A stretch of DNA of 64,000 nt from an uncultured Flavobacteriia bacterium (lineage in GTDB: Bacteria; Bacteroidota; Bacteroidia; Flavobacteriales_D; Crocinitomicaceae). Where the stretch lies: positions 117,748 to 181,747 of the forward strand of contig CALJTX010000019.1 in NCBI GenBank assembly GCA_937975705.1. Direction: 5' to 3'. The translations under genes and the position numbers were made by a program. Positions within the stretch are counted from its first letter, which is position 1, and each line of letters starts with the position of its first letter. Of the stretch, positions 15,917-30,775 are shown piece by piece. The notes under the pieces were generated by a model. It saw only the letters and a list, made by a program, of their open reading frames with translations, did no database searches and was not told the origin of the DNA.

Positions 15917-16402
15917 ATGCGATTTTATTTAGTTGACAGAATTGAGGAGATTATTCCAGGACAAAAGGCCACTGGAATCAAATGTTGGACTTTATCGGAA
16001 GATTATTTTGCGGAACATTTCCCAGGGTTTCCTATTGTTCCGGGCGTTTTACAAATAGAAACGATGGCCCAACTAATGGGCATCCTTATTGAACATTCAT
16101 ATGCTGCAGCCTATCCAGAGAAAGGGAGGTGTTATCCAATCCTAAGTATTGTTCAAAAGGCAAAATTTAGAGATGTCATCATTCCCGGCGACCAAAGTCA
16201 CATAGAAGTTGTTTTAACCTCTCTCGATACGATGCGTGCTGCCGGTAGTGCAAAATTGCTTGTGGAGGGGAAAGTCCGCGCGGAAGCGGATTTGAGTTTT
16301 ACTATTTTGGAAGCCCAACAAGCAAGTAATAACCCTTTTATTGGTCAACGCGACGAATATTATTTGTCTTTAAATGTTCAACAAACGCTTAAAAAGCGCT
16401 AA
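15917..16402 (+). CDS. FabZ/FabA-family 3-hydroxyacyl-ACP dehydratase (hot-dog fold)
   Basis: 'HFPGFPIVPGVLQIETMAQ' carries the catalytic His and Glu of FabZ-type dehydratases. 161 aa. Confidence 0.8.
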   Translation: MRFYLVDRIEEIIPGQKATGIKCWTLSEDYFAEHFPGFPIVPGVLQIETMAQLMGILIEHSYAAAYPEKGRCYPILSIVQKAKFRDVIIPGDQSHIEVVLTSLDTMRAAGSAKLLVEGKVRAEADLSFTILEAQQASNNPFIGQRDEYYLSLNVQQTLKKR

Positions 16403-17430
16403 TGCTCGCTACCATAACAGCCATCGGATTTTGGGAAAGTGCTATGTTTTCTGTCGACGGCACCTTGGAGCCAAGGTCTGAGTTGTTGCCTAATGAGGCT
16501 ATAAATCAGCGTCAGTTACCTCACTTTAACGCTGCGTTTCGCCAAATTCAACTCGATCCCACACACCCTAATTACCCCAAACAGAGCGATCTTAAAATTT
16601 TGCGCAACGATACAATTGCAGCACTTGTGCTGAGCCAGCAGATGCAGGCTTTACATCAGTGGGGCACTACATTTAAGGAACATGGCGCCCTTTTGGTTGC
16701 GAACAGCAATTTTATCGATGACGACGTACTCGATTTTGAGTCCATAACTACTGCAGTGAGTCAGTTACAAACGGCGCTTGATCCTGCAACTGAAAACAAA
16801 TTGTTTGGTTCTACTATTTCACCTTTATTGCCACTCAGAACGCTAACCAATGGCGCACAGAGTTTTATTGCGCAATATTTAGGATTTTATGGGAGTTCTA
16901 CCACTTACGGGAGTACAGGAATTGCGAGTGTTCAGGCCTTACGAGATGCCTGTAACTTAATCATTATTGATGCAAGCCGCTTGATTTTAGTTGGCGGTTG
17001 TCATTTCGCCAATTTGTTCTCATTTCTAAATAATTGCTTGTTGCTTCATGATACCGAAGGATATGCAGAGGCAAGCGCTGCTAGTTTTTTCATGTTAACA
17101 GCTGCCAATCCAAAGGTGAGCGGCAAGCACAATTTACACATCCTTCATTTTTATCAAAATCTAGAAGAGCTGCAAGGAGAACATGTAGATTGGTTGTTTT
17201 ACGGAGGTGCATTTACGCCGCTTGAGGATGCAAAATTGCTTGCGCGCTGTCAGCATTTGCAATATCAAGAAGCATTTAGCTGGTTTGCTCATACGGGTAA
17301 TCTTGGTGCGGCCGAACTCGGCATGCTGCTTGCGGCTGCGGGCAACTGGCTCAGAAAAGGTCAAACTGCAGTTGTGTTGATTCAAGATGCATTTGGCGTT
17401 CTAGAACTTTTCAAAGTGGAGCACGCATGA
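16402..17430 (+). CDS. KS-like, non-catalytic partner (chain-length-factor-like) protein
   Basis: 342 aa. The region equivalent to the KS active site reads 'YGSTGIASVQAL' (no Cys). C-terminal 'AHTGNLGAAELG' lacks the KS His. TAATG and ATGA coupling to both neighbours. Confidence 0.55.
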   Translation: MLATITAIGFWESAMFSVDGTLEPRSELLPNEAINQRQLPHFNAAFRQIQLDPTHPNYPKQSDLKILRNDTIAALVLSQQMQALHQWGTTFKEHGALLVANSNFIDDDVLDFESITTAVSQLQTALDPATENKLFGSTISPLLPLRTLTNGAQSFIAQYLGFYGSSTTYGSTGIASVQALRDACNLIIIDASRLILVGGCHFANLFSFLNNCLLLHDTEGYAEASAASFFMLTAANPKVSGKHNLHILHFYQNLEELQGEHVDWLFYGGAFTPLEDAKLLARCQHLQYQEAFSWFAHTGNLGAAELGMLLAAAGNWLRKGQTAVVLIQDAFGVLELFKVEHA

Positions 17431-18695
17431 GTTCAGCAAAAGTTTATGTCCTTCACACACATTCGGTGAGTCCGCTAGGGATGGGTAGCGCTGAGTTGTT
17501 GGCAGCCCTAAAAAATCAAAAGCAAGCTGCCGCTGACATCACACAATTTGACCCTGCTGGTTTGGCCCAAACCAAAGCCTGTGAAGTGGCGCCTGCATAT
17601 TTGGCGGGTCTTGACCTTCTTCATGAAGCTTGGCAAATGGTGGCAGCCTATGACCGTAAATTTGCACTTTGGGCCACCGCAGTGCAAAGCGAGCAAGCGC
17701 AACTTCAAGCGCTTTTTAGCAAAACTTCAACACAGCGAACAGCATTATTTTTGGGCTTGGGAGCCAACGCGATCCCCGTCCAACATATCGCCAAATCCGT
17801 TTCTGATTTTACCGCTTTTGGATTGAATCAAGCCATTGCCCAACTAAATGTTCATGTGGGTAAAAAAGCCAATTCGATTTTCAATCATGCCGATTTATAC
17901 GGTAACTATTTTCGCCAAGAAATTGCACCATTTGGCTTTTGTAGGAATTTAATGACGGCATGCTCGAGTAGTACGCAAGCCATTGCTTTTGGTGCTGCAC
18001 ATATTTTGTCCGGACAAGCTGATTTGGTTTTAGCAGGCGGCACCGACTCTATTCTCAATCAGTTTGCCTACATATCTTTTGGCAAATTAGGCGTATTGAG
18101 CCCTGAAGAATGTAAGCCTTTTGATACAGGACGCAACGGTACAATTGCTGGTGAATGTGCCGGATTTACATTGTTGGCATCTGAGCAATTCGTTCGGGAA
18201 AACGGTTTGCAACCCCAGATTGCACTTCTAGGTTATGGCAACAGCATGGACGCTTACAAAATCACTGCGCCAGATCCAAATGGGGCCGGCGTTGAACGCG
18301 CGCTGCGTTGCGCATTACAGATGGCTCAACTATCGCCAGAGGCATTGGATTACATCAATGCCCACGGAACCGGAACGCGATCCAATGACGAAGCAGAGTT
18401 GCGCGCCATTGAACGGGTTGTTGGTTCGGCTGCAGCTAATATTGCCGTGAGCTCGACCAAAGACCGACACGGTCATGCTATTGCAGCCGCGGGTATTCAA
18501 GAATTTCATGTGCTCACTACCTGTATGTCAAACGGACTCGTACCAGCAAACCTCAATTGTAACAATCCAATTCAAACGCCGCTTGAGCTGCCCCTACAAA
18601 CCAATCAAAATCGAAAAATCAAATATGCACTCACCAATAATTTTGCTTTTGGTGGTGTCAATTGTGCTTTAGCACTTGAAAACTTAGCCCTATGA
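17427..18695 (+). CDS. beta-ketoacyl-ACP synthase (KAS I/II-type, Cys-His-His)
   Basis: 'LMTACSSSTQAI' (Cys), 'INAHGTGT' (His), 'KDRHGHAIAAAG' (His), 'NNFAFGGVNCALAL' C-terminus. Confidence 0.85.
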   Translation: MSSAKVYVLHTHSVSPLGMGSAELLAALKNQKQAAADITQFDPAGLAQTKACEVAPAYLAGLDLLHEAWQMVAAYDRKFALWATAVQSEQAQLQALFSKTSTQRTALFLGLGANAIPVQHIAKSVSDFTAFGLNQAIAQLNVHVGKKANSIFNHADLYGNYFRQEIAPFGFCRNLMTACSSSTQAIAFGAAHILSGQADLVLAGGTDSILNQFAYISFGKLGVLSPEECKPFDTGRNGTIAGECAGFTLLASEQFVRENGLQPQIALLGYGNSMDAYKITAPDPNGAGVERALRCALQMAQLSPEALDYINAHGTGTRSNDEAELRAIERVVGSAAANIAVSSTKDRHGHAIAAAGIQEFHVLTTCMSNGLVPANLNCNNPIQTPLELPLQTNQNRKIKYALTNNFAFGGVNCALALENLAL

Positions 18696-19447
18696 ACCTC
18701 GAATTAAAAGATAAAATTGTGTGTATTACCGGTGCCTCAGGTGGGATTGGCTTGGCTCTGGTGAGTGCTTTTTTAGATGAGGGAGCTATTGTTTGCGCTA
18801 CGTATCATCGCAACCCAGATAAAATTGAGCAGCTGCGCGCCACGCTCGATCCAATGATTGGTTCTCATTTATTTGCGTACCCACTCGATCTTCAAAACCA
18901 AGCAAGTCAAAGCGCATGTGTTGCTGCAATGTGTAACGCACATCAGCGCATCGATGTCTTGGTCAATTGTGCAGGTTCGGCCTTAGAAAAACCTTTCTTG
19001 CTCTTGACACCCGAAGAAATTACGCAGCAAATCACCACTAATTTTAGCCAACAAGCACTTTTCACACAGCAAGTAGCTAAGGTCATGCTTGCACAGCGCA
19101 AAGGCAATATTGTCAATATTTCGAGTTTGTTAGCCAAACGTTTGGGTAGGGGAGTGGCTGTATATGCTGCAGCCAAAGCGGCTATTGATCGCTTTACACA
19201 AACACTTGCTCTAGAGGTAGGTAAAAAAGGCATTCGTGTCAACAGCATCAATCCAGGCCTCATTGCCACCAAGATGAGCAAAAATATCCAAGCGAATATG
19301 CCAGCGGAGCTCATGAATATGAGTCCGATTTCGAGGCCGGGCACACCAGAAGAAATTGCACAAGCAGCCTTGTTTTTAGCTTCAGACCGAGCAGCTAGTT
19401 ACATCACTGGCGTTTGTTTATCTGTAGATGGAGGCCTCAGTATTTAA
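18692..19447 (+). CDS. 3-oxoacyl-ACP reductase (FabG-type SDR)
   Basis: 'ITGASGGIGLA' cofactor motif, 'NISS', 'YAAAKAA' (YxxxK). 251 aa. Confidence 0.85.
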   Translation: MNLELKDKIVCITGASGGIGLALVSAFLDEGAIVCATYHRNPDKIEQLRATLDPMIGSHLFAYPLDLQNQASQSACVAAMCNAHQRIDVLVNCAGSALEKPFLLLTPEEITQQITTNFSQQALFTQQVAKVMLAQRKGNIVNISSLLAKRLGRGVAVYAAAKAAIDRFTQTLALEVGKKGIRVNSINPGLIATKMSKNIQANMPAELMNMSPISRPGTPEEIAQAALFLASDRAASYITGVCLSVDGGLSI

Positions 19448-19467
19448 TTCAAATTTATATTTCAAAA

Positions 19468-19863
19468 ATGACACAGAACGAAGAAATTATCGAACAAATC
19501 AAGCAAATCATCCACCAGTCTTGTGGTATTGACCCTGCCGTCATGCATGCGCATTCAACGATTTTTGATGAATTGAGCATCGATTCTATCGATATGGTAG
19601 ACATTTTATTTCAATTGGAAAGACACTATAATATTGAGCTCAAAATTTCTGAAATTGAGCAGCAATCTAAAGTTGAAATGGGAGAGGAACCTTTTGAAGT
19701 AAACCAAATCATTACGCCAAAAGGACTTGAAGTTTTGCGCCGACGCATGCCTGAGATAGATCCCAATCTACTCAAGGAGGGACTGTCTATGTTCGATGTG
19801 ATCAAATTGATCAATATCCAAAGTTTGGCAAATATGGTAGCGCATCAACTCGCTAAAAAATAA
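19468..19863 (+). CDS. acyl carrier protein with an internal insertion
   Basis: ATG at 19468 (the track start 19414 would overlap the end of fabG). 'DELSIDSIDMVDILFQLE' is the phosphopantetheine-Ser/helix II motif. 131 aa versus the usual ~80 aa. Confidence 0.7.
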   Translation: MTQNEEIIEQIKQIIHQSCGIDPAVMHAHSTIFDELSIDSIDMVDILFQLERHYNIELKISEIEQQSKVEMGEEPFEVNQIITPKGLEVLRRRMPEIDPNLLKEGLSMFDVIKLINIQSLANMVAHQLAKK

Positions 19864-19867
19864 AGGT

Positions 19868-21007
19868 ATGCCCGGCGTAATCTATCGCATTGCCGCACAG
19901 GAAGCACTTTATGGTTTTGGAGATCCTATTTTGGATGTCCCGATCCTAAATGAAAGTTTGGGGACCTATCAAGCGCGCATTTGTGCACAATGCGGTATGC
20001 GTATTGTGGATGTCTCATCAATTGAAAATTTACCTCAAACGGATATGCCCTTGTGGTATTTCCACGCCAAAATGATTTTCACGCTTGACTTTCTAAAGGC
20101 GGCAATTCAAGAAACAATTGCGAATCCGAGTGCATTTATTCAATTTGGTTTAAAAATGCAGCCCTCGGCTCAGCAGCATTCTTTGCCGATCGCGTTACAT
20201 GAAACCGAACTCACTTTTCCCTTGTTCTATAAAGGTAGTGTGGTTGCCCAACAAGCCCAACGAATTGAATTAGCTGGAAAAGAGTACGAGTGGCAAATTC
20301 AAATGCCCGCTCAGGTAATGCCTGGGGGCACCTACCGCTTGAATCAGAATGCGGTTTTTGCAGCCATGTTATTGTCTCCATTTCATTTGCATGGTGCCAA
20401 TATGGCCCTGAATTTGAACAGGGGTCTTCGGATCCAGGCCCTGCTTCCGGATTGGCTGCGCATGCGCATTTCCAAACCTTTTACCAAACTGACTTCTTTT
20501 GGATTAAAGCGCATGAATCGAAGCGGTAAGAATTGTCGAATACACCCGAGCGCTGTGGTGGAGGGTTGTGTCTTAGGCGACAACGTGACCGTTGGAGCCA
20601 ACGCTGTGCTCCGCATGAGTGTCATTGGGAGTGGAACCTTCATTGGCGATACCGCAGTTGTGAGTTTTTCGGTGCTGGGGCCAAATAACTTTGTAAGTAC
20701 GGGTAATCATTTGGTCAACAGCCTCACGTACCCCTCTGTTTTTACGATTCATGGCCCTTATCAGTACAGTATTTTTGGCCAGAACACAGCGGTTTTTGCC
20801 ACCATTAATTCAGATATCCGACTCGATTCAAAAACCATCAAAATACCCACAGAAATAGGGATCTGTGACTCCGGTCAAATTTTGCTTGGGGTGGCTTACG
20901 GACACCGTTCTAAAATTGGCGGTTCAAATATCATTGGCGCAGGGCGATTGGTCCCAAATGACTACGTTTTAAATCCGCCAGATTTCATCACACTTCAATT
21001 TGAATGA
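19868..21007 (+). CDS. left-handed beta-helix (hexapeptide-repeat) protein with GlmU/nucleotidyltransferase-like architecture
   Basis: C-terminal hexapeptide repeats 'IHPSAVVEGCVLGDNVTVGANAVLRMSVIGSGTFIGDTAVV'. The N-terminal ~220 aa is of unclear fold. Confidence 0.45.
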   Translation: MPGVIYRIAAQEALYGFGDPILDVPILNESLGTYQARICAQCGMRIVDVSSIENLPQTDMPLWYFHAKMIFTLDFLKAAIQETIANPSAFIQFGLKMQPSAQQHSLPIALHETELTFPLFYKGSVVAQQAQRIELAGKEYEWQIQMPAQVMPGGTYRLNQNAVFAAMLLSPFHLHGANMALNLNRGLRIQALLPDWLRMRISKPFTKLTSFGLKRMNRSGKNCRIHPSAVVEGCVLGDNVTVGANAVLRMSVIGSGTFIGDTAVVSFSVLGPNNFVSTGNHLVNSLTYPSVFTIHGPYQYSIFGQNTAVFATINSDIRLDSKTIKIPTEIGICDSGQILLGVAYGHRSKIGGSNIIGAGRLVPNDYVLNPPDFITLQFE

Positions 21008-22101
21008 TGGCGCAAAATACTTTTTTAATTGGGGCTTACGGCTATACGGCGCAACTCATTGCTGCACAAATGGCAGCAGCGGGCTTGGCTTTTACCGCGG
21101 TGGGGAGGGATCAAACTAAACTTGAGCAACTCCAACAAGAGTTTGTAAATTGTTATGGGTATATCGTTGCGGATATCCAAAATGAAGCCATGCTCGATTT
21201 TTTACAAAAAGGAGCGGTGGTGATAAATTGTGCGGGCCCATTCAATTTGCTTGCGCCTACCTTATTGGCTAAATGTATTGCTGTTGGCGCACATTATATC
21301 GATATCACCGGAGAACAAGAAATCGTAAGGCAAAGTTATGAGCGCTATGCGCGTACGGCTCGGCAGAATGAAATTTGTGTGCTGCATTCAATGGCTTTTG
21401 AATCTGCTCTAACCGATATTTTATTGAGCCATTCCTTGCAAAAGGTAGCGCAGGACGAAATAGAAGAGGTACAATCGTATTATCATATTGGTAGCCAGCA
21501 AATGAGCCCTGGCACCAAACTAACAATGAAGTTGGCCAATTATCATTCCAATTATATAGTTGAGAACCAGCGTTTGTTGCCTTTTGCAAATCAGTTCGCA
21601 AATGTGCCGAAAGGTTTGCCCTTTGAAGCCGCAAGAGTGGTGCCTTATCCAGAGGTAATTTTTGCCTATGAACGACTTCAGCCAAAGCGCGCGGCGTCTC
21701 ATTTTGTTGTGGAGCAAGGCAGCAATCTATCGTTTTCCGGCCACTTCATGAGGCCAGCTCAAACAGACGAAGCGCAACTTCATTCCATAATTGAACGATT
21801 TAAAAAGGTGCAACATGTGGGCCCAGCAGCCACAGACCGGGAAAAGCAACATTTTGAGCTTTATTTGCTGCTGCATACCCACAACGTGACCCATGTGGCC
21901 TCAATAAGCGGGTACAACATGTATGAAATTACGGCAGCGCTTGTCGTATTGACGCTGCAGCAACTCCAATTACGGCCTACTCATTTTGGCGTCTTGAGTC
22001 CTGGGCAATTTTTAGATCAGGCAGGCTTATCATGGCTTTTAGACAACCCTTATTTTACCTTGAATAGTCCAATAACACTTAAAAATGATGCAAAGATTTA
22101 G
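21004..22101 (+). CDS. saccharopine-dehydrogenase-fold NAD(P)-binding protein (putative trans-acting enoyl reductase)
   Basis: N-terminal Rossmann 'FLIGAYGYTAQLIAAQMAAAG', later 'VINCAGPF'. 365 aa, with ATGA overlap to the upstream gene. Confidence 0.5.
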   Translation: MMAQNTFLIGAYGYTAQLIAAQMAAAGLAFTAVGRDQTKLEQLQQEFVNCYGYIVADIQNEAMLDFLQKGAVVINCAGPFNLLAPTLLAKCIAVGAHYIDITGEQEIVRQSYERYARTARQNEICVLHSMAFESALTDILLSHSLQKVAQDEIEEVQSYYHIGSQQMSPGTKLTMKLANYHSNYIVENQRLLPFANQFANVPKGLPFEAARVVPYPEVIFAYERLQPKRAASHFVVEQGSNLSFSGHFMRPAQTDEAQLHSIIERFKKVQHVGPAATDREKQHFELYLLLHTHNVTHVASISGYNMYEITAALVVLTLQQLQLRPTHFGVLSPGQFLDQAGLSWLLDNPYFTLNSPITLKNDAKI

Positions 22102-24811
22102 GTTTTCATTGCATTTATTGATTTTTCCTGTCTTGCAAATGCTTGCCATGTATGTGCTGTTTGCCGGACATTTTTCAACGCTTTGGTTGCTATTAATCGC
22201 ATGCCTTGCGGCATTTTTACTCAATTGGAACTTACATGTGAGTGTTCACCACTTGGTGCATCATCCACCAAAGCACAAAGTCATCCGCAATTTGTGTTAC
22301 CTGATTTCATCTTTACTACTAGGTCTTCCATTTCATTATTACCAGCTCATTCACCGCAATCACCACAACTTTAACAATGAAGAGGGTGATTTTACCAGTA
22401 CGTGGTCATTTCAGAATGGCACAGCAGCACCCCGACCTTTTTGGTTTTACATTCTTTTTTGGTGGATCCCCAAGGTGCCTTTGTCTGTGCAAATTCAAAA
22501 GGCCCGCTCAACGGGTTGGCTGAATGCAAATGGAGCGCGATGGTTGGGTATAGAGCTGTTGTTGCTTGTCTTCTTTTATGTGCTATTGTTCCTCATTTTT
22601 GGTTGGAAAGGATGCTTGTATGCGCTACTCGTTTATGTAGGATGGGTCCTGATAAGTGCGCAGAATTATGGCCAGCATTTGCCTGTCAATGGGCAGGAAC
22701 AAACCACGAGTGTTTACGCAAAATGGTACAATTGGCTGACGCTCAACAATGGTTTACACCACGAACACCATCAAAGACCACAAGTACAATATGACTGTTT
22801 GGAGCCAGATCCAAACATAAACGACTTACAAAAACCGCATTTAACGGCAGGTTTGAGGCTTCAAAAATGGCGTGGCAGTTTTGTGTTGACTTTGCTCCTC
22901 ATGGTTGGGTTGCTCTCTCAACTCCCGCATTTACAAATGACGGGTAGCCTCGATGGTTTTGCTGCCGGAGATTCAGCAGTCTTTCAAGATGCCCGCAGTT
23001 ATGATTCCATTTTTGGCCAAAGCAAGTTTCGATATTACTGGAGCATAACACCTCAAGCAAATGCAAAGCTTGGCTTTCTAACTTCCTGTACGCAGTTTGA
23101 GCAAGCGCTCAAAAAGCAGACACCCGCGCTGGAGTTCCTTAGCTCATCGGGTCAGTTGCGCAAATTTGCAAGGCTGCGGCTCTATCCCAAACAAATGTCG
23201 GCACGTGATTTTTTGAAGATTGCGGCTCAGCACCCACAACTCGGCAAACTCATTTCAAAAGACGGCAAGTCTTTTTTACTCATTGCCGACTATAAGGGGG
23301 CGTCTGTTCCACTCAAAAAAGTTGCGGCATTGCAACAAATGGAGTTTCCTCAAATCAGTCAAATTAGAGGCTTTGGCATGCAAGGGCTGGAGGCGGCGAT
23401 CGCTAGCTCAATGCAAGAAGACATCTTAACGATTACCGGGCTTATATTTATTTTATTTGGAGGTTATTTGTTTTGGCGTTATCGACGGCTTAGTGCAATC
23501 ATTTATTTAGTGAGCAACATGCTTTTGTCTATTCTACTCACTGTTTGTTTGTTCCCTCTTTTCGGTTACCAAATGACGGTAGTGAGTGTACTTGCCCTTC
23601 CAATAGTATTGGTGCTTTCTTTGAGCGATGCGATTCATTTACTCGGAGGAATTGCCAAAGGTCAGACAAGCGCGGTTACTTTACGTAAAATCTGGATTCC
23701 ATCCTTACTGAGCAGCCTGACCACCGCTATTGCCTTTTTTAGCTTTTACTTCAATGATGCACCGAATATGGTACAGCTTGGAATGGTGACCGGAACCGCC
23801 GTTTTATTGGAATTTTTGGTATCTATGGCGCTAGCACAGCAGTTCTTACACATGGTGAATTTGCGCAAAGCGGAAAGTCAGGTTATTTTAAACACCAGTC
23901 ATTTTTTAGAGCGTCGTCAAAAACAAATAGGTTGGGGGCTTTTGGCTTTGGTGCTTGCTGCACTTTTGCTTTTGCCAAAGTTGCGCTTTGAAGCAGCGAC
24001 CGACGACTTCTTTCCAGACGGCCATCCTGTGACCAAAGAACACGCCTTCTTCAGAAGTCAGTTTGATGCACAAAAAGTACTACACCTTTGGTTTGATGCG
24101 ACTCCTGACGACTCCTTGAAACGCATACAAATTGCAAATTGGCTAGACCAACAACATGCGGCGCATTTGTTGCATTGGGAATTCAAGCCGCAGCAAGCTC
24201 AGAAACCATTAGCAGCAAGTATTTATTTTACAGATACCAAGGCAATCGGTGCCTATTACCGACAACTCGAATACAAAGGTGATTTCAAGCGCGAGGGGCT
24301 GGGCTTGCATGCATATAGTCCGTTTGTTGTTTTTGATGTTGTGAACCAACAGGTTGCGGCTTCCTTATTTTGGAGTCTGCTCACTGCGAGTGCAGCTATT
24401 GTATTGCTCATGTTATGGTTGACAAGAAATCCGCTTCAAGCATTGCTGGGCTTTATTCCCAATTTAGTGCCGTTGGCAGCAGTAGTCGTATTTTTCGTGG
24501 TTTTTGACCAAGGCCTCAATATGCTTACTGCGCTCACATTGGTGGTTTGTGTGGGCTTACTCGATGACGACACCATTCACGTTTTGTATCAGAAGTATGT
24601 GTTGCGCGCTCCAGTAGCGCAGATGAATCCGATCATTATACATGCAGCCATATTACTTGCTTTAGGTTTTGGGTGTTTTGTTTTTAGCAATTTCAAGCCA
24701 ACCCGCATATTTGGGGGCGTGAGCGCGCTCGTTTTTGTTATCGGACTCTTGGGTGAACTCACCTTATTTCAATGGATTTTAAATCAGTTTAATCGAGAAG
24801 TTCATGATTGA
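22085..24811 (+). CDS. fusion protein: membrane fatty-acid desaturase/hydroxylase domain + MMPL/RND-type transporter domain
   Basis: Three His boxes: 'HVSVHHLVHH' (aa 51-60), 'HRNHH' (aa 90-94), 'HHEHH' (aa 225-229). These are followed by two blocks of about 5-6 TM helices, each preceded by a soluble loop (aa ~260-908), as in MMPL/RND exporters. Confidence 0.7.
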   Translation: MMQRFRFSLHLLIFPVLQMLAMYVLFAGHFSTLWLLLIACLAAFLLNWNLHVSVHHLVHHPPKHKVIRNLCYLISSLLLGLPFHYYQLIHRNHHNFNNEEGDFTSTWSFQNGTAAPRPFWFYILFWWIPKVPLSVQIQKARSTGWLNANGARWLGIELLLLVFFYVLLFLIFGWKGCLYALLVYVGWVLISAQNYGQHLPVNGQEQTTSVYAKWYNWLTLNNGLHHEHHQRPQVQYDCLEPDPNINDLQKPHLTAGLRLQKWRGSFVLTLLLMVGLLSQLPHLQMTGSLDGFAAGDSAVFQDARSYDSIFGQSKFRYYWSITPQANAKLGFLTSCTQFEQALKKQTPALEFLSSSGQLRKFARLRLYPKQMSARDFLKIAAQHPQLGKLISKDGKSFLLIADYKGASVPLKKVAALQQMEFPQISQIRGFGMQGLEAAIASSMQEDILTITGLIFILFGGYLFWRYRRLSAIIYLVSNMLLSILLTVCLFPLFGYQMTVVSVLALPIVLVLSLSDAIHLLGGIAKGQTSAVTLRKIWIPSLLSSLTTAIAFFSFYFNDAPNMVQLGMVTGTAVLLEFLVSMALAQQFLHMVNLRKAESQVILNTSHFLERRQKQIGWGLLALVLAALLLLPKLRFEAATDDFFPDGHPVTKEHAFFRSQFDAQKVLHLWFDATPDDSLKRIQIANWLDQQHAAHLLHWEFKPQQAQKPLAASIYFTDTKAIGAYYRQLEYKGDFKREGLGLHAYSPFVVFDVVNQQVAASLFWSLLTASAAIVLLMLWLTRNPLQALLGFIPNLVPLAAVVVFFVVFDQGLNMLTALTLVVCVGLLDDDTIHVLYQKYVLRAPVAQMNPIIIHAAILLALGFGCFVFSNFKPTRIFGGVSALVFVIGLLGELTLFQWILNQFNREVHD

Positions 24812-26621
24812 TGCCAAGGCAAGTTCACTCGCTCAAAAAGTATGGGCGCTCAATGGTAACGAAGCGCTTGCTTATGGCGCTTTGCATGCCGGAGTCGCTT
24901 ATTTTGCGCATTATCCAGGTTCTCCGGTAAATGGAATCGAACCCGTTTTGAAGCAACTCAACACACAACATTCTGCCCAGATTACCTTTAACGATGCGCT
25001 CAATGAGCATATAGCGGCTTGCGCTGCAATAGGAGCGAGTATGACAGGCGCGCGCGCTATGTTGGTCATGAAACATGTTGGGCTCAATATTGCTGCTGAC
25101 CCATTGAATTATGTGGGTTATGCGGGAATCAAAGGTGGAATGCTCATTGTGGTGGGGACGGACCCCGGGGCAAATTCAAGTACGGGAGAAGAAGACGTAC
25201 ATTGGTATGCCAAGCAATTCAATTTGCCCCTATTTGAGCCTACAAGCCCACAAGAACTTTATGATTGCTGCCATAATGGATATGCACTTTCTGAAGCGCT
25301 CGGTTTGCCAATCCTTGTATATGTAACAGGACTCATTTGCCATCAGAGCACCCGCGTCAATACCAGACAGGTGGCAAATGAACCACGCCACTATTATTTT
25401 GAGAAAAATAGAGATCGGTATATCAATGTTGGCCAACGCGCCGTTCAAAATCACCGCTTACTGCTGGAAAAAATAGCTGGTTTTGCGCAGACCCATGCTT
25501 TTTTGAAAGTGGACGGACCGCCAAATGCTCCGTTGGCGGTAATCACAAGAGGTAATACAACATTACACTTTCCTGAAATACGCACCTACATCCCGCAATT
25601 AGCCAATTGCACCTGGATTCAGCTGACTGGTGTTTATCCTCTGCCAAAGAATGCCTTGTTGCCACTGCTTGAAGACAAAACAGAAATCATCGTGATGGAA
25701 GATCAAGATGGTTTTGTAGAGCACCTCATCAAAATGGAGTTGTACAATGAGCTCAGTGCAAAAATTCAAGGAAAAAATCTTTTTCCGGCATATGGTGAAT
25801 TGCGCGTTAACGAGCTACTAGAAATCATGTGTCGATACTTTGGCGTTGTGTATCCGTTTGCAGGTTTACCAAGCTTCCCTATTCCGGAGCGTTTGGGTAC
25901 TTTTTGCGAAGGTTGTCCGCATACGGGGAGTTACTTTGCTATTGAGCAAGCCCTACCCGAACAAGAACGTATCATTGGTGGCGATATCGGTTGTTCGTCT
26001 TTACCTCCATTTCGAGCAGATTGGTTATTGTGTATGAATGCTGGAATTGGACTTGCACAAGGAATGGCCCCGTTTGTACAAGCTCAAAAATTAGTCTCTA
26101 CAGGAGGTGATGGTAGTTTTTTTCACGGTGGTTTATTGGCCGTATTGAGCGCTATTCAAAATAAAGTCAATTTGGTACACCTCGTTTTTGACAACAAAAG
26201 TGTTGCCATGACCGGGCATCAGTTATCTGCCTCCACGCAGGTAGCTTATGCAGATTTACTGCGCGCACTAGGCGTTGCATCCTTTTCTGAAGCCAGCGCA
26301 TTTCATCCAAAAGAGCTTGAAGCACTTGTAAAAGAAAAAGAACAGCTCGAGGGGGTTCATGTCATCTGGGTAAGCGGGGCCTGTGCACAAATACCTGATG
26401 CACGTGCTACTTTTAGAAGGGCGCATTACGCACCTCAGATCGATGCCAGTAAATGTGCTTCATGTACCTTGTGTTATGAATCATTGGCTTGCCCCGCAAT
26501 TGATCGGGATGAGAAGGGGCAGTTTCAGATCGATTTGGCGCGCTGTATGCGCTGTGGTGTGTGCCATGAAATTTGTCCGAACGACGCCATTGACTTAGGC
26601 GCAAAAACAGGTCAAGCATGA
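24804..26621 (+). CDS. iorA: indolepyruvate:ferredoxin oxidoreductase alpha subunit-like (TPP + 2x[4Fe-4S])
   Basis: 'LNGNEALAYGALHAGVAYFAHYPGSP' N-terminus, 'GDIGCSSL' TPP region, and C-terminal ferredoxin motifs 'CASCTLCYESLACP' and 'CMRCGVCHEICP'. Confidence 0.8.
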   Translation: MIDAKASSLAQKVWALNGNEALAYGALHAGVAYFAHYPGSPVNGIEPVLKQLNTQHSAQITFNDALNEHIAACAAIGASMTGARAMLVMKHVGLNIAADPLNYVGYAGIKGGMLIVVGTDPGANSSTGEEDVHWYAKQFNLPLFEPTSPQELYDCCHNGYALSEALGLPILVYVTGLICHQSTRVNTRQVANEPRHYYFEKNRDRYINVGQRAVQNHRLLLEKIAGFAQTHAFLKVDGPPNAPLAVITRGNTTLHFPEIRTYIPQLANCTWIQLTGVYPLPKNALLPLLEDKTEIIVMEDQDGFVEHLIKMELYNELSAKIQGKNLFPAYGELRVNELLEIMCRYFGVVYPFAGLPSFPIPERLGTFCEGCPHTGSYFAIEQALPEQERIIGGDIGCSSLPPFRADWLLCMNAGIGLAQGMAPFVQAQKLVSTGGDGSFFHGGLLAVLSAIQNKVNLVHLVFDNKSVAMTGHQLSASTQVAYADLLRALGVASFSEASAFHPKELEALVKEKEQLEGVHVIWVSGACAQIPDARATFRRAHYAPQIDASKCASCTLCYESLACPAIDRDEKGQFQIDLARCMRCGVCHEICPNDAIDLGAKTGQA

Positions 26622-27142
26622 AACAAGAACTGCGCATATTAATAGCCGGGGTTGGCGGGCAGGGCATTCATGGCTTTGTGCGCGTGCTGCAACAAGAGAT
26701 GTACACTCAAGGTTATGAACTGATTTGCGCGCGCTATAAAGGTGGGGCCCAAAGCCTTGGCTCAGTTCATGCAGAAATAAAGATCTTTTTAAGCCCAGCG
26801 CAGGCTAGCGAACAGCAGAGTAGCCAACTGATTCCGGGCACCATCGATATCTTGCTTGGGCTCGAACGCTGGGAAACCCTACGTTTCTTGCCTTTTTGTC
26901 ACAACCAAACCTTCATTGTCTGCGATACCTACACAGAATTTCCGCCAGGAACCAAACGTCAAGATGACCTGCCTTCAATTGATACGTACTTTTCGAGATT
27001 GACCAATCCAATGATAAGCAAAGACTTTGTAGCATTAGCCCACGCTCGGGGCTGGTCAAAATCAGCAGTTCCATTCTTGCTTTTTAATGAGGCTATCGAG
27101 GCGCTTGGCCTAACGACAACTATTCAACAACTAAAACCTTAA
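26618..27142 (+). CDS. iorB: indolepyruvate/2-oxoacid:ferredoxin oxidoreductase beta(gamma-type) subunit
   Basis: 'ILIAGVGGQGIHGF' P-loop-like motif of the POR gamma/IorB family. ATGA overlap with iorA. Confidence 0.7.
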   Translation: MKQELRILIAGVGGQGIHGFVRVLQQEMYTQGYELICARYKGGAQSLGSVHAEIKIFLSPAQASEQQSSQLIPGTIDILLGLERWETLRFLPFCHNQTFIVCDTYTEFPPGTKRQDDLPSIDTYFSRLTNPMISKDFVALAHARGWSKSAVPFLLFNEAIEALGLTTTIQQLKP

Positions 27143-27146
27143 CCAC

Positions 27147-28514
27147 ATGAATTGGAAAGAAAACTCTAGAGTAGCCATGCATTGGCACACCAATGAACAA
27201 GGCAATAAAATTGTTTGTGACCTTTGTCCAAGACATTGCCAAACGCAACCTGGCCAGATGGGATTTTGCAAAGTCAGAGGGAATGTTGATGGAACCTTTC
27301 ATACGTTCAATTTCGGTAAATCGGTGACGGCAACCCAAGAGTGTATTGAAACGGAAGCTGTCAACCATTACATGCCGGGTGCCCGTATCTTGAGTTTGGG
27401 TAATATCGGTTGCATGATGGCTTGCTCTTATTGTCAGAACTGGCAAACTTCTCAAATTAAGCACCTCAATGATGCAAATGTATTTGAGTACACGCCAGAA
27501 CAAGTAATTGAACTTGCGCTTTCCAACGACATCAAAGTCATTTCCTGGACCTACAACGATCCTGTAGTTTGGCACGAATTTGTGCTAGAGACCTCCAGGT
27601 TAGCTAAAGCGGCAGGCCTCACCACCTTATATAAATCTGCGCTATATATTGAGCTTGAACCTTTGCGAGAATTAATTGAAGTGATAGACATTTTCTCGAT
27701 TTCACTCAAGTGCATGGACGATGCGATTTACCGCAAGGAAAACAAGGGAAAATTGCAACCGGTCCTCGATGCTATTGAGCTCATCGCTGCTTCTGAGCGC
27801 CATCTGGAGATTTCACAATTGGTTGTTACGGGCCTCAATGACGATGGCACAGATGCCATTAAAACTGCACGTTGGATGCGCGAAAAGCTCAAACCCGAAG
27901 TGCCTTTACATTTGGTGGCGTATCACCCTAGTTTCAAGTATAAAAAGCCGCGTACTGAACTGTCCACCTTACTCAAGCTGAGAGAACTTGTGATCAAGGA
28001 AGGCTTGGAGTATGTCTATTTAGGAAATGTCTATGCCGACGACATGAGCAATACCTATTGTAAGTCTTGTTCGAATTTGCTTGTAGAACGCTTTGGACTC
28101 TCTGTTCAAGTCCCAGGCCTCGATGCCGATGGAAATTGCAAAAATTGCCATACACCGTCAGTAATCAGAGATGCTTTGGGTGGGCAGCCAACAGAAAAGC
28201 CTGTTTTGGTACCATTTGTTGCCGAGCAAACGCATACTTTTGAGTGGAACGACGAAATCAGATCCGTTCATATTTTCCTGGACAGTCCGCAAAAAGATAC
28301 GGTACGTATCCAATTAAAGCGCATGCCTGCCAATACCATCCATTATCTCGAACTCAATGAAGGGCTCGAGCGCATTATTTTGTCAAAGAGTAGTGCGCAA
28401 GAGCAAGCGCTCATTATTTCAGCCGCATGTCAAACGCCACTGCACATCTTGCCGGTGCTCGACCGCGCACACTTCCCTGTTATTGATGAAACCAAAGCAT
28501 CGAGCTATGCATAA
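27147..28514 (+). CDS. radical SAM enzyme, AmmeMemoRadiSam-system type, with ~110-aa C-terminal extension
   Basis: N-terminal 'CDLCPRHCQTQPGQMGFCKVR'. Radical SAM CxxxCxxC 'CMMACSYC'. Zn-ribbon-like 'CKSCSN...CKNCH'. About 110 more residues with no motif I recognise. Confidence 0.75.
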   Translation: MNWKENSRVAMHWHTNEQGNKIVCDLCPRHCQTQPGQMGFCKVRGNVDGTFHTFNFGKSVTATQECIETEAVNHYMPGARILSLGNIGCMMACSYCQNWQTSQIKHLNDANVFEYTPEQVIELALSNDIKVISWTYNDPVVWHEFVLETSRLAKAAGLTTLYKSALYIELEPLRELIEVIDIFSISLKCMDDAIYRKENKGKLQPVLDAIELIAASERHLEISQLVVTGLNDDGTDAIKTARWMREKLKPEVPLHLVAYHPSFKYKKPRTELSTLLKLRELVIKEGLEYVYLGNVYADDMSNTYCKSCSNLLVERFGLSVQVPGLDADGNCKNCHTPSVIRDALGGQPTEKPVLVPFVAEQTHTFEWNDEIRSVHIFLDSPQKDTVRIQLKRMPANTIHYLELNEGLERIILSKSSAQEQALIISAACQTPLHILPVLDRAHFPVIDETKASSYA

Positions 28515-29634
28515 ACTGACCCAAATTTTAAAACAGCGCGTAGATACAACCAACGCTGCGCCTGTTGTTACGCCTATCTATCAAAATAGTGCATTTGAAG
28601 CGCACTCTCCTTTTTTTTATACGCGTAAGAACAATCCAAATGTCGAAGAACTAGAGCAAGTTTTCTGTGCTTTAGAGGAGTCCGCATTTGCGGTGTGCTG
28701 CTCGACAGGAATGGCTGCCATTTCAAATACGCTCCTGTTATTGAAGCCAGGTGATCATTTGGTCATCAATCAATTGATTTATGGCTGTTCTTATGTGCTT
28801 TTTGAGCGTTTTTGTCAACAGTATCAAATTGAGCTCACTGTGCTCGACCTCACTTCTGATGAAGGAATAAACGCCATGCCGCAAGATGTCAGTATGGTCT
28901 TATTTGAGACCCCAACCAATCCTTTTGTGCGCAGCATTGCTATTGCCGCTGTGGTCAAGCAGGCTAAAAAATGCAATCCGAATTGTGTGGTAGTTGTAGA
29001 CAACACTTGGGCCACTCCTTTATTCCAACAGCCTTTAATGCATGGCGCTGATCTCTCGTTGTATTCTGCAACAAAATACTTTTCGGGACACAGCGACGTG
29101 ATGGGTGGCGTACTCACAACAAATGATCCTGTTCTTGCGCAGCATTTAAGAGAAGCGCGGTTTTATCATGGCGCTATTCTGGATCCAAATAGCGCTTGGT
29201 TGTTGCGCAGAAGCATGCAGACATTCACTATTCGGATGCGCGCACATGGACAGGCCACCACACAAATTAGAGACTGGTTACAGCAGCAAAGTGGGGTGGA
29301 AGCGGTTTTTTATCCTCAAATCGATGGCAGTCAATTGAAAGGTTATGCCACATTATTGTTTTTCACGTTAGCGGAGTCTTTGAGTGAGCGCTACGATGAA
29401 TTTGTGTCCGCATTGCAACTTTTTGATACCGGCACCGGAATGGCATGTGTAACCTCTATGGTGGCCCGGCCATATTCTGGTAGCCATGCCTCCATGAACG
29501 AGCAGCAAAAACAGCAAATGGGGCTTACCCGTCAGCTCGTCAGGCTCAGCATTGGTTTGGAGGAGGTAGATGACCTTATTGCGGATTTAAGCCAAGCTTT
29601 TGAACAAATCGGCGCCAATGAATTGAACGCCTAA
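28507..29634 (+). CDS. Cys/Met-metabolism PLP-dependent enzyme (cystathionine gamma-synthase/lyase family)
   Basis: ATG at 28507 overlaps the rSAM stop (ATGCATAA). PLP-lysine motif 'YSATKYFSGHSDVMGG'. 'TPTNP' and 'DNTWATP' motifs. Confidence 0.8.
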   Translation: MHKLTQILKQRVDTTNAAPVVTPIYQNSAFEAHSPFFYTRKNNPNVEELEQVFCALEESAFAVCCSTGMAAISNTLLLLKPGDHLVINQLIYGCSYVLFERFCQQYQIELTVLDLTSDEGINAMPQDVSMVLFETPTNPFVRSIAIAAVVKQAKKCNPNCVVVVDNTWATPLFQQPLMHGADLSLYSATKYFSGHSDVMGGVLTTNDPVLAQHLREARFYHGAILDPNSAWLLRRSMQTFTIRMRAHGQATTQIRDWLQQQSGVEAVFYPQIDGSQLKGYATLLFFTLAESLSERYDEFVSALQLFDTGTGMACVTSMVARPYSGSHASMNEQQKQQMGLTRQLVRLSIGLEEVDDLIADLSQAFEQIGANELNA

Positions 29635-29644
29635 AGGGCAAACT

Positions 29645-30775
29645 ATGCAGGAGCAGGAAGCATTCACATTATACCGATTAAAAGCACTTGCCATTTGCGC
29701 ACTTCTTGTATTGCACCTTCTACTGAGCTTTACTTGGATACCACAACTCTACGGTATTTGGCCAATCAGTGTGGAGGCACCAAGTATAAGCCTGACTGGT
29801 TTTGCGTCATTTTTGAATCTTTTTGGACTGCTCTTGTTTTTTATTTTGTCGGGCTACACACTCCGAAAAAAAGCGTTCAATCAGGAGCGCTACTTGCTGC
29901 AAAAAGCAAACAAAAACATGTGGCGCTTCTTCAAGTATTATACTTTGCTTTCGCTCATTTTTTATTTGTTGTTGTCTTTTTCAGAGGGGCGCTTTTTGGC
30001 TTTTGATGAATGCACTTTTTTAGTTTCATTTTACCATTTGTGGTTTATTGTTGCCTTGGCCGGGTTCCAATTGTTATTATTTCTTGTGCAGCGATTGAAT
30101 TCAGCCTTAATTAAGAACCTGCGGATACCCGTTGCGCTTCCGCTCTGCATTCATGCGCTTGGATTATATGGACAAGGAGGTGTTTTTTTGAAAACGCCGA
30201 CCCAGTTAGCTGCAGCAACCTTACTCTCTATTGTGGTGTATTTCTTTTGGTTTCTGTACGGCTTCTCACGTCCAAAAGGCCCACTCCATTTGGGCAATAG
30301 ATTTAGTTTGCAGCGCTTATTGAGTTGTATTCTGGTGCTTGGAATCTATTTCTTAGCAAAAACGGCGCTCATTTTCTCTTGGAATTTTACAACTTTTTGG
30401 CAATTGCTTTCATCGTGCATCGATCCTTTGACATTTATCGCTGCGCTAAACATCAGTTTGTGGCTTTTTGAGGTAGCAAATAAAAAGCAATATGCTATTG
30501 ATTCAACGCGGCTCCAATATTTTTTACTGCGTTTTCAACTGCCAATTTATGTGTTTCAGATTCCCCTGATCTTCGTTCTTATTTCGATCCAAGAGATATT
30601 TGGATGCAGGCTGTTTCTAACTGAAAAATACAATTCTCAAGTGCCCAATTGGCAAGAAGCGCCCAGCACTTGGATATTGTTTCACATCCTTTTGATCATT
30701 TTTGCGCTGCTTATGTGGCTGCTCTGGCACTTTAGCAAACAAAAAACCCCTCATTCAAAAGAACAAGGGGTTTAG
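29645..30775 (+). CDS. integral-membrane acyltransferase (Acyl_transf_3-like)
   Basis: About 10 TM helices. N-terminal 'YRLKALAICALLVLH' fits the R..A....V..H start of the acyltransferase-3 family. Confidence 0.55.
   Translation: MQEQEAFTLYRLKALAICALLVLHLLLSFTWIPQLYGIWPISVEAPSISLTGFASFLNLFGLLLFFILSGYTLRKKAFNQERYLLQKANKNMWRFFKYYTLLSLIFYLLLSFSEGRFLAFDECTFLVSFYHLWFIVALAGFQLLLFLVQRLNSALIKNLRIPVALPLCIHALGLYGQGGVFLKTPTQLAAATLLSIVVYFFWFLYGFSRPKGPLHLGNRFSLQRLLSCILVLGIYFLAKTALIFSWNFTTFWQLLSSCIDPLTFIAALNISLWLFEVANKKQYAIDSTRLQYFLLRFQLPIYVFQIPLIFVLISIQEIFGCRLFLTEKYNSQVPNWQEAPSTWILFHILLIIFALLMWLLWHFSKQKTPHSKEQGV
30744..30773 (-). terminator. hairpin likely terminating tRNA-Cys, embedded in the last codons of the acyltransferase gene
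   Basis: 8-bp stem AAACCCCT / AGGGGTTT with a 14-nt loop. A T6 run follows on the minus strand (plus-strand A-run 30738-30746). Confidence 0.4.

Follow-up and report, generated by a model that had tools for sequence, protein, structure and literature searches.

The radical SAM enzyme of 455 amino acids encoded at positions 27147-28514 (+ strand) of the window, the whole 64,000-nucleotide stretch of DNA analysed here, belongs to a distinct and widespread paralogous subfamily, which forms a sister branch of the AmmeMemoRadiSam enzymes and which we denoted as the long form. The long form occurs in more than 200 bacterial species, and since it usually adjoins a dedicated methionine-gamma-lyase-like PLP enzyme, the two proteins probably constitute one biosynthetic module. 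Our best explanation, to which we assign a probability of roughly 0.4, is that the module acts on a small sulfur amino acid and delivers a 2-oxoacid, an acyl-CoA and electrons for making an acyl-amino-acid lipid that is then exported.

The profile search matched the window enzyme to PF04055 and to TIGR04337, on which it scored 288.8 bits against a cut-off of 220, with residues 12-337 covered and residues 338-455 unmatched. The AmmeMemoRadiSam membership proposed by the sequence-only reading therefore holds with respect to this model, but an identity with the canonical enzymes does not. In the phylogenetic tree, a single 100/100 branch with a length of about 2 separated 63 long forms from 37 canonical (short) sequences; as the tree is unrooted, it shows a sister or derived clade and not the direction of the change. 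The two groups shared 33-38% identity in the core, and the long forms showed about 30 clade-specific substitutions and an altered set of barrel residues on a cysteine architecture common to both. In the genomes searched, TIGR04337 scores were 310-657 bits for canonical enzymes and 283-314 bits for long forms. The enzyme had also been described as an orphan, a view that we had to abandon, as the long form was found in at least 213 species genomes from more than 10 phyla.

No match to AMMECR1 (PF01871) or Memo (PF01875) was found in the window, as had been observed previously, or in the whole 2.5-Mb genome, which is 98% complete. Where a genome carried both forms, AMMECR1 adjoined the short form only and never the long form, and one genome carried the long form without a canonical paralogue. 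Among the genomes examined, the long form was never located beside AMMECR1 or Memo and was present in genomes having neither. We infer that the long form acts independently of AMMECR1 and Memo. The window protein could be an ordinary AmmeMemoRadiSam enzyme whose partners lie elsewhere or have been lost, and its PLP neighbour could be a housekeeping gene of methionine metabolism placed next to it by chance. This would agree with the TIGR04337 score and with the name that NCBI gives to its relatives ("AmmeMemoRadiSam system radical SAM enzyme"). However, the absence of both partners from the 98%-complete genome, the separate clade, the canonical paralogues that coexist with it and keep their AMMECR1 linkage, and the finding that the PLP gene belongs to a dedicated orthologue group located beside the radical SAM gene across phyla, distinct from housekeeping paralogues, make this very improbable. 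A canonical enzyme that simply lost its partners was accordingly rejected.

The long form shares its domain order and three cysteine motifs with the TIGR04337 enzymes, and the open reading frame and cysteine positions agreed with those reported in the sequence-only reading. The N-terminal cluster C24-x2-C27-x3-C31...C41 ("CDLCPRHC...FCKVR"; 27216-27269, +) is a candidate auxiliary Fe-S or Zn site. The radical SAM CX3CX2C motif "CMMACSYC" (C89, C93 and C96; 27411-27434, +), the predicted site of the [4Fe-4S] cluster for SAM cleavage, was invariant in all 100 aligned sequences. The CxxC...CxxC ribbon "CKSC...CKNC" (C305, C308, C331 and C334; 28059-28148, +) is common to long and short forms, and the ribbon region was predicted to contain a beta-hairpin at residues 311-321. 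All 11 cysteine columns were conserved in both groups, including C24, C31 and C41 of the N-terminal cluster, with the exception of C27, which was kept in 73% of long forms and 100% of short forms.

An AF2 model of the window enzyme was obtained with a pLDDT of 84.5 and a pTM of 0.86. The best solved match for its barrel was the pyruvate formate-lyase activating enzyme (PFL-AE) PflA (PDB 3cb8, 8fo0), with target-normalised TM-scores of 0.74-0.77 and an E value of 1e-10 at 18% identity. PFL-AE was also the sole match when solved structures were searched by sequence, and no structure of an AmmeMemoRadiSam-type protein was found by this search. The long form is about 200 residues larger than PflA, owing to its N-terminal cysteine domain, ribbon and C-terminal sandwich. 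Despite the PFL-AE-like core fold and weak matches to activase models (44-48 bits), the suggestion that the window enzyme is a PflA-type activase of a glycyl-radical enzyme is hardly credible. Its scores were far below the activase cut-offs of 174-250 bits (47.2 bits on TIGR02493, cut-off 231.75; 44.0 bits on TIGR02494, cut-off 174.35), and the suggestion is contradicted because the source genome gave no match to a glycyl-radical (PF01228) or PFL-like (PF02901) domain. The sequence-only reading, which a placement among the ordinary activases would have contradicted, thus stands on this point.

Unlike the canonical members of TIGR04337, the long form has an additional clade-specific C-terminal domain of about 120 amino acids (28149-28511, +), predicted from alignments and the model to be a seven-stranded beta-sandwich; the segment "SVIRDALGGQ" begins at residue 338 (nucleotide 28158). 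Eight residues of this domain, mostly polar, were invariant across more than 10 phyla in two alignments (A1 and A2), including W367, H375, R409 and residues of D439-R-A-H442-F-P444. The latter DRAHFP signature (28461-28478, +) lies at the end of the last beta-strand, and its D, R, A, H and P were invariant across phyla. The search pattern P[VL]LDRAH[FY]P, built on this signature, retrieved the family. More than 100 protein clusters conserve the extension along its whole length, and it was present in 74 of the 80 fetched loci.

The Pfam search of the C-terminal domain returned only noise and no family, and Foldseek with the isolated domain found no PDB fold at E<=1e-3. Its top folds were generic beta-sandwiches (CBM6, nucleoplasmin-like) and poorly superposed cupins (TM 0.2-0.25), and we therefore do not claim kinship with cupins or CBMs. 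A phmmer search of 1.8 billion representative proteins found no copy of the domain outside the radical SAM family: each of the 19 matches was either the C-terminus of a member of this same family or a fragment of one cut off by a contig end. In these searches the extension corresponded to no known accessory domain, which supports its description as novel, but it is not peculiar to this gene. The whole-chain pTM of the model suggests that the domain is packed in a fixed position on the core.

The downstream gene (28507-29634, +) encodes a Cys/Met-family PLP enzyme of 375 amino acids (PF01053, 1.2e-96), predicted to be of the methionine-gamma-lyase type. Its ATG at 28507 precedes the TAA stop codon of the radical SAM gene (28512-28514), giving the 8-nt overlap ATGCATAA that had been noticed earlier, with the junction sequence GCT ATG CAT AAA. 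Although its frame opens at 28357 in the mechanical list of open reading frames, homologues start at the methionine of 28507 ("MHKITKIL" in locus L018). Judging from this overlap, the PLP gene is translationally coupled to the radical SAM gene.

The PLP-binding lysine recognised in the sequence-only reading was confirmed as K190 in "SATKYFSGHSD" (29074-29076, +). Within the partner clade, S187, T189, K190, G194, H195, S196 and D197 were invariant, and the carboxylate arginine R346 was conserved. The Y92-G93-C94 motif (28780-28788, +), which contains the predicted methionine-gamma-lyase-type active-site cysteine, occurred in 53 of 53 partner enzymes; it aligned with the YGC of methionine gamma-lyase 7bqw, whereas the cystathionine gamma-synthase 4l0o has YGG at this position. 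We take the cysteine of this motif (Cys116 in the Pseudomonas putida enzyme) to mark methionine gamma-lyases, but YGC is a correlate of that activity and not proof of it. Methionine gamma-lyases (7bqw, 6lxu) were also the closest PDB sequences, and the partner has in common with this group (including 1gc0) the type I fold, the PLP lysine, the Tyr/Arg phosphate clamp and the carboxylate arginine. Unlike the methionine gamma-lyases, however, it forms its own orthologue group linked to the long form, in which members were 48-59% identical, compared with 29-35% for housekeeping paralogues. It scored below every NCBIfam equivalog cut-off (TIGR01328, methionine gamma-lyase: 257.9 bits against 549.7).

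The adjacency of the two genes was conserved in other genomes: the PLP orthologue was located directly downstream of the long form in 51 of 73 readable loci from many phyla. Immediately upstream in the window, ending 4 nt before the start of the radical SAM gene, are genes for IorA-like and IorB-like subunits of a 2-oxoacid:ferredoxin oxidoreductase (24804-27142, +), the former with TPP and two [4Fe-4S] sites. The pair has the POR_N, TPP_enzyme_C, two Fer4 and POR domains, and thus the two-subunit TPP and 2x[4Fe-4S] architecture of indolepyruvate:ferredoxin oxidoreductase IorAB. Unlike IorAB proper, it adjoins a radical SAM gene and scores below the equivalog cut-offs (IorA-like: 410.8 bits on TIGR03336, cut-off 650.9; IorB-like: 39.2 bits on TIGR03334, cut-off 205.8, and about 50 bits on IorB models).

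IorAB genes lay directly upstream of the long form in 33 of 66 loci, 30 of which also had the adjacent PLP gene. The three remaining loci represent one Cocleimonas lineage, and in the one genome of this lineage that was searched (locus L056) the PLP orthologue was found on another contig. The conserved linkage is therefore nested, with IorAB contained within PLP and PLP within radical SAM. IorAB was missing from 13 loci that had the PLP gene, and both were missing from another 16, implying that the radical SAM enzyme can do without IorAB and, in one third of loci, also without the PLP enzyme. Gamma-lyase and IorAB nevertheless distinguish the long form, as conserved partners of its own, from the canonical enzymes. 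The earlier idea of a radical SAM/PLP pair in a lipid operon was borne out with regard to the pair, but the setting is not restricted to lipid operons: about one third of loci were without the PLP and lipid genes. It should be noted that neighbours in high-GC actinomycete loci were read coarsely, because the simple ORF caller is unreliable there.

The window operon, predicted to span 15917-30775, also contains KS, CLF, KR, DH and ACP genes, an LbH transferase and a desaturase-RND fusion. Its last gene (29645-30775, +) encodes a polytopic membrane protein of 376 amino acids with no significant family match and with homologues in close relatives only; in other Bacteroidota clusters its place is taken by an Acyl_transf_3 or a GH3-family protein (L029 and L024). 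No shared third partner was detected by BLASTP among the ~380-aa neighbours (L005, L006) and the 342-aa and 376-aa proteins of the window. LbH transferases were found in 30 loci and LysE-type exporters in five, and LuxE, LuxC, penicillin amidase and LCAT were among the genes near long forms. A minimal cluster (L041) comprised only the radical SAM gene, the PLP gene, a 2x[4Fe-4S] ferredoxin and a LysE-like exporter, with no acyl-carrier or lipid gene. In our literature search, no cluster combining radical SAM, IOR, cystathionine-family, desaturase and ACP genes was found.

Gamma-type clusters share a core of PLP, desaturase and LbH genes with the window operon, but they encode small cysteine-bearing transmembrane peptides ending in ..C[GS]G.. 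beside an Lgt-like transferase gene, whereas the window cluster has neither and carries the KS/CLF/KR/DH/ACP genes and the desaturase-RND fusion instead. The radical SAM enzyme might take a hydrogen atom from a protein or peptide, such as a small cysteine-containing membrane peptide, the PLP enzyme itself or an ACP; the beta-sandwich would then serve as a docking domain. Its top structural match is PFL-AE with a bound peptide, and Memo-AMMECR1-type radical SAM domains have been noted in peptide-processing systems (PMC7159879). However, such a peptide gene is absent from the window operon and from other Bacteroidota-type clusters, because their gene gaps are 20 nt or less, and the minimal clusters encode an amino-acid exporter but, on the operon strand, no peptide. 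We consider peptide or protein modification unlikely.

The small-molecule module that we favour could operate as follows, although its substrate, step order and electron route are the inferred parts of the scheme. The radical SAM enzyme would cleave SAM reductively at the C89/C93/C96 cluster and take a hydrogen atom from its substrate, a small charged molecule resembling an amino acid, which would sit between the mouth of the barrel and the invariant polar residues of the C-terminal domain. The PLP gamma-lyase would act on a sulfur amino acid by alpha,gamma-elimination or gamma-replacement, yielding a 2-oxoacid and a thiol; this amino acid may be the substrate or product of the radical SAM enzyme, or the methionine that is freed when SAM is cleaved. 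In the window operon, the 2-oxoacid would be oxidised to acyl-CoA by the IorAB-type enzyme, whose ferredoxin domain could return electrons to the radical SAM cluster. The KS/ACP/KR/DH proteins, LbH transferase, desaturase-RND fusion and terminal membrane protein would then assemble the product into a lipid of the acyl-amino-acid type and export it. In Escherichia coli, pyruvate:flavodoxin oxidoreductase supplies the PFL activase with electrons, and anaerobic protists convert methionine to propionyl-CoA via methionine gamma-lyase followed by PFOR.

In favour of this module we counted the ferredoxin and LysE-like genes of the minimal cluster, together with the other LysE loci, which point to the need for a low-potential donor and to a small exported product. 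The LbH transferases, the GH3 or Acyl_transf_3 genes after the PLP gene, and LuxE, LuxC, penicillin amidase and LCAT were counted for an acyl and amino-acid theme recurring in independent contexts. Against it we counted that many loci have the long form without IorAB or without the PLP gene, that PFL-AE, the closest solved relative, acts on a protein loop, that the membrane peptides and Lgt-like transferase of the gamma-type clusters fit a peptide substrate equally well, and that the PLP partner scored 258 bits where the methionine-gamma-lyase equivalog requires 550.

The conserved cysteines could also indicate sulfur insertion, in which one of the extra cysteine sites of the radical SAM enzyme would bind an auxiliary Fe-S cluster and the enzyme, like LipA, BioB and MiaB, would add a thiol or methylthio group to an unactivated carbon, here in an acyl-ACP or lipid, with the lyase providing H2S or methanethiol and IorAB the electrons. 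There are eight conserved extra cysteines in two motifs, the known chemistry of MGL-type lyases liberates methanethiol or H2S, the window operon includes ACP, KS and further lipid genes, and lipoyl synthases were among the fold matches of the enzyme, ranked below PFL-AE. However, canonical AmmeMemoRadiSam enzymes, for which there is no lyase partner, keep the extra motifs equally well, C27 is missing from 27% of long forms, the lyase is absent from one third of loci, and the minimal clusters are without any acyl-carrier or lipid gene. Sulfur insertion is in our view quite unlikely.

More tentatively, the small-molecule module can be extended to a general proposal: the long form and its MGL-type partner may form the core pair of an undescribed pathway, present in more than 200 species, in which a sulfur amino acid undergoes a new kind of radical reaction. 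Its product, a non-proteinogenic amino acid or an acyl starter, might be exported in the LysE clusters, attached to lipid in this operon, or attached to lipidated mini-peptides in the Lgt-like clusters. The sandwich with its W/H/R/DRAH[FY]P residues might then represent a novel catalytic domain of radical SAM enzymes that binds substrate or metal.

For the long-form clade, the public labels "AmmeMemoRadiSam system radical SAM enzyme" and "pyruvate formate lyase activating enzyme" are misleading, and separating the clade would mend hundreds of annotations. We know of no reaction for the AmmeMemoRadiSam family or its long-form sister clade, and the literature found contained only passing mentions of "AmmeMemoRadiSam". 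The long form offers an easier entry: the chemistry of its PLP partner's class is well understood, some clusters are as small as four genes, and it occurs in hosts that can be cultured and genetically manipulated, including Corallococcus, Streptomyces, Micromonospora and Stappia. Corallococcus llansteffanensis CA051B carries the PLP type of locus, and Stappia and Streptomyces the non-PLP type. AMMECR1 and MEMO1 are conserved in humans, and to our knowledge no molecular function has been established for either. Solving the long form could reveal a new radical SAM reaction, could by homology hint at the role of the AMMECR1/Memo-linked enzymes, and would show what is made by a lipid operon that is common among the abundant Bacteroidota of fresh and marine waters. 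The same long-form family was also found in an HgcAB-like corrinoid cluster with three radical SAM genes.

The 455-aa radical SAM protein (rSAM) of the sequence-only reading is encoded by the ORF at 27147-28514 (+), and its cysteines, at residues 24, 27, 31 and 41, at 89, 93 and 96, and at 305, 308, 331 and 334, agree with the three motifs quoted there. An HMM search placed it in the proposed AmmeMemoRadiSam subfamily, with residues 12-337 matching TIGR04337 (AmmeMemoSam_rS) at 288.8 bits against a cut-off of 220. It did not group with ordinary pyruvate formate-lyase (PFL)-type activases, as the glycyl-radical activase models scored 44-48 bits against cut-offs of 174-250. In the window genome (2.53 Mb, 65 contigs, 98% complete), no glycyl-radical enzyme, AMMECR1 or Memo was found, extending to the whole genome the AMMECR1/Memo absence noted for the window. 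The sub-cut-off scores and the missing glycyl-radical enzyme contradict a reading as a glycyl-radical activase. The top structural match of the whole rSAM model was PFL-AE (3cb8; E 1e-10, TM 0.74 on the target).

In a maximum-likelihood tree built from the core of 63 long and 37 short sequences, one branch (support 100/100, length ~2 substitutions per site) separated the long form, which carries an extra C-terminal domain, from the short, canonical form. Core identity of the window rSAM to short forms was 29-38% (33-38% in all but one), whereas even the most distant long forms share at least 43%. All Cys motifs are common to both groups. About 30 positions are fixed differently (e.g., T69/E70/A71 in long forms vs K/K/P in short forms, K163 vs V, and S186 vs D), a sequence pattern that fits an altered active site in the long forms. 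Both forms occurred in four of five genomes searched, where the short forms (stop-to-stop frames of 325-383 aa, 310-394 bits with TIGR04337) included two adjoining AMMECR1 on the same contig, and the long forms (449-469 aa, 283-314 bits) were located away from AMMECR1. An Aquificaceae genome had the long form alone, with neither a short form nor AMMECR1. Among 401 sampled Bacteroidota genomes, 100 had a match above the cut-off, nearly all of them short forms. A reading as a canonical AmmeMemoRadiSam member is contradicted by the separate clade and the absence of AMMECR1 and Memo. In the long form, an rSAM of PFL-AE/AmmeMemoRadiSam type, both the integral domain and the fixed partner are new. 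The database name does not fit this family, for which we found no reaction, structure or paper in the literature or among solved structures.

The region past the second CxxC (residues 335-455) was present in 74 of 80 relative loci fetched from other genomes (L numbers below), so the extension is not peculiar to this one protein. When 36 sequences from all phyla were aligned, its mean column identity was only 25%, yet eight columns were invariant (W367, H375, R409, D439, R440, A441, H442 and P444). AlphaFold2 predicted a seven-stranded, all-beta domain (pLDDT 79; whole rSAM, pLDDT 84.5 and pTM 0.86), and the high whole-chain pTM suggests a fixed packing of the domain against the barrel. Structure prediction and fold search upheld the claim of a novel domain: no Pfam family matched it, and no solved structure did so at E<=1e-3, the best being generic beta-sandwiches with TM <0.6. 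Among 1.8 billion representative proteins, the domain was found only as the C-terminus or truncated fragments of the long-form family.

The rSAM is not the lone orphan it had been taken for. A protein search returned >100 clusters of 440-486 aa, aligned over 97-100% of the query with 49-94% identity, and when genomes, one per species, were scanned with two conserved peptides (DPVVW[HQ]EF and P[VL]LDRAH[FY]P), 213 were confirmed to contain relatives. The 80 best loci among them covered Bacteroidota, Bdellovibrionota, Gamma- and Alphaproteobacteria, Actinomycetota, Myxococcota, Planctomycetota, Verrucomicrobiota, Nitrospirota, Aquificota, Acidobacteriota, Cyanobacteria and candidate phyla. The species scan also found near-identical loci in Crocinitomicaceae MAGs. 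Just three of 24 other genomes of the window's genus carried the long form, which is thus accessory and patchy in distribution. Two contigs labelled Sphingomonadales (L014, VHBC01000005.1, and L051) carried the complete Bacteroidota-type operon with 83-89% protein identity to the window, most likely through a binning error rather than transfer.

The PLP partner (375 aa, 28507-29634, +) is a full-length Cys/Met-family enzyme (PF01053, 1.2e-96) with the lysine motif SATKYFSGHSD, confirming the earlier family call. At the junction, GCTATGCATAAA, its ATG lies at 28507 and the rSAM stop at 28512-28514, so the PLP gene begins 8 nt ahead of the rSAM gene end, as the claimed overlap implied. The two genes are translationally coupled, and both products have complete catalytic motifs. 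A longer listed ORF starting at 28357 was rejected as a mechanical artefact, since homologues begin at the equivalent of 28507.

The PLP partner scored below all NCBIfam equivalog cut-offs (best 265 bits vs 600), and its best solved relatives were methionine gamma-lyases (7bqw and 6lxu, 218 bits). The PLP lysine, a Y38/R40 clamp and R346 are conserved among the partners, and all 53 sequences have Y-G-C-[ST] at residues 92-95. In the HMMER alignment this falls on YGCT of methionine gamma-lyase, while the cystathionine gamma-synthase of Helicobacter has YGGT there. We take this Cys to be Cys116 of the Pseudomonas putida enzyme, characteristic of methionine gamma-lyases, in which it tunes specificity for methionine. 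The Cys is a lead, not proof, pointing to a methionine-gamma-lyase type.

Linkage was surveyed by tblastn of the window operon proteins against the 80 loci, counting only loci with enough flanking sequence. The PLP orthologue immediately followed the rSAM gene, in the same orientation, in 51/73 loci (43/65 excluding relatives with at least 86% identity), so the adjacency is conserved in other genomes. IorA-IorB, subunits of a 2-oxoacid:ferredoxin oxidoreductase (OFOR; 24804-27142, +, in the window), lay directly upstream in 33/66 loci (25/58 with the same exclusion). Both flanks could be read in 62 loci, of which 30 had both partners, 13 PLP only, three IorAB only and 16 neither. All three IorAB-only loci were from Cocleimonas, and in L056, the sole such genome searched, a 56%-identical PLP orthologue was found on another contig (G446:C41:711-1808). 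Genomes of the "neither" class (Stappia, Streptomyces, Micromonospora, Zixibacteria) had only housekeeping PLP paralogues of 29-35% identity; outside this class, a PLP orthologue was found in each long-form genome where sought. IorAB thus almost never occurs without the PLP gene. The rSAM-PLP linkage crosses phyla, and the OFOR is nested on the PLP gene. In the split Cocleimonas clusters (L056, L060, L065), IorAB-rSAM is kept together, and ahead of it lies the gene for a PF10118 metal-dependent hydrolase/AurF-like di-iron protein. One Bacteroidetes MAG encodes a B12-binding radical SAM enzyme (L032:8492-9916) immediately before the rSAM, where IorAB would otherwise be.

We propose one short pathway, with a probability of roughly 0.4 for the scheme as a whole. 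Its rSAM would act on a small molecule, charged and amino-acid-like, whose binding would be aided by the invariant polar residues in the C-terminal sandwich. From a sulfur amino acid, the gamma-lyase would form a 2-oxoacid by elimination or replacement. IorAB would convert this 2-oxoacid to acyl-CoA, and the IorAB ferredoxin domain could re-reduce the rSAM cluster. The main rival readings, a peptide or protein substrate and, slightly behind it, sulfur insertion by the rSAM with the gamma-lyase as sulfur donor, both seem unlikely. Precedents are the E. coli PFL activase, fed by pyruvate:flavodoxin oxidoreductase, for the IorAB-rSAM step, and methionine gamma-lyase followed by PFOR in anaerobic protists for the lyase-IorAB step. 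The other operon genes may serve assembly and export of an acyl-amino-acid-type lipid. Amino-acid exporters and acyl-amide enzymes recur in long-form rSAM neighbourhoods, and a fatty-acid-desaturase-family protein and an LbH protein accompany PLP-type clusters. The long-form rSAM is a solid, widely distributed family with a clear experimental route, whose function we infer.

The Bacteroidota and Bdellovibrionota clusters (window, L007, L018-L030, L034, L044) share the order FabA-like, KS-like, KS, FabG, ACP, LbH, saccharopine-dehydrogenase-like, desaturase, RND, IorA, IorB, rSAM and PLP, followed by a membrane protein, Acyl_transf_3 or a GH3 amido synthetase. The GH3-family acyl-acid amido synthetase occurs in some Flavobacteriales clusters, downstream of the PLP gene (L024:12461-13948) or convergent with it (L022, c28 family), and the Acyl_transf_3 membrane acyltransferase follows PLP in Saprospiraceae and Chitinophaga (L029:12455-13534). 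The window ACP (19414-19863) is unusually long, ~132 aa when counted from the MTQNEE Met, with a ~50-aa C-terminal extension past the PP-binding domain that is conserved in length (L007, 134 aa; L032, 132 aa). T9SS sorting domains are encoded beside the operon and, with the near-identical Crocinitomicaceae loci, mark the window genome as one of Bacteroidota.

Gammaproteobacterial and Aquificota clusters run IorA, IorB, rSAM, PLP, desaturase, one or two small membrane peptides ending ..C[GS]G.., an Lgt-like transferase (PF01790) and LbH. In gammaproteobacteria, the peptides between desaturase and Lgt-like gene have 72-125 aa (L047:13370-13588; L057:13462-13689 and 13715-13984; +3359 to +3589 from the rSAM start in L064, and +5499 to +5876 in L036). 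In each, the N-terminus is polar and a single transmembrane helix ends in ..[IV][AVS]C[GS]G.. a few residues short of the C-terminus; several have a terminal Trp. From sequence, they look like substrates of S-diacylglyceryl transfer at a C-terminal "reverse lipobox".

Clusters of a type without PLP, in Alphaproteobacteria and actinomycetes, encode two more rSAM enzymes (HemN-like and Fer4_12), a methyltransferase, a CdhD/ferredoxin-like protein and a ThiF-hydrolase fusion. Among minimal clusters, L005 and L039 combine rSAM-PLP with LCAT, LuxE, LuxC, penicillin amidase and GT2. The smallest cluster seen, in Candidatus Sororendozoicomonas (L041:11446-13597), has rSAM-PLP followed by just a 111-aa 2x[4Fe-4S] ferredoxin and a LysE-like exporter, and is a good candidate for heterologous expression. 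Just past it, on the opposite strand (L041:13827-17265, -), a gene for a secreted protein of ~97 aa with Cys is present in six tandem copies. Behind each of the first five comes a near-identical ORF of 79 aa, probably an artefact of the repeat.
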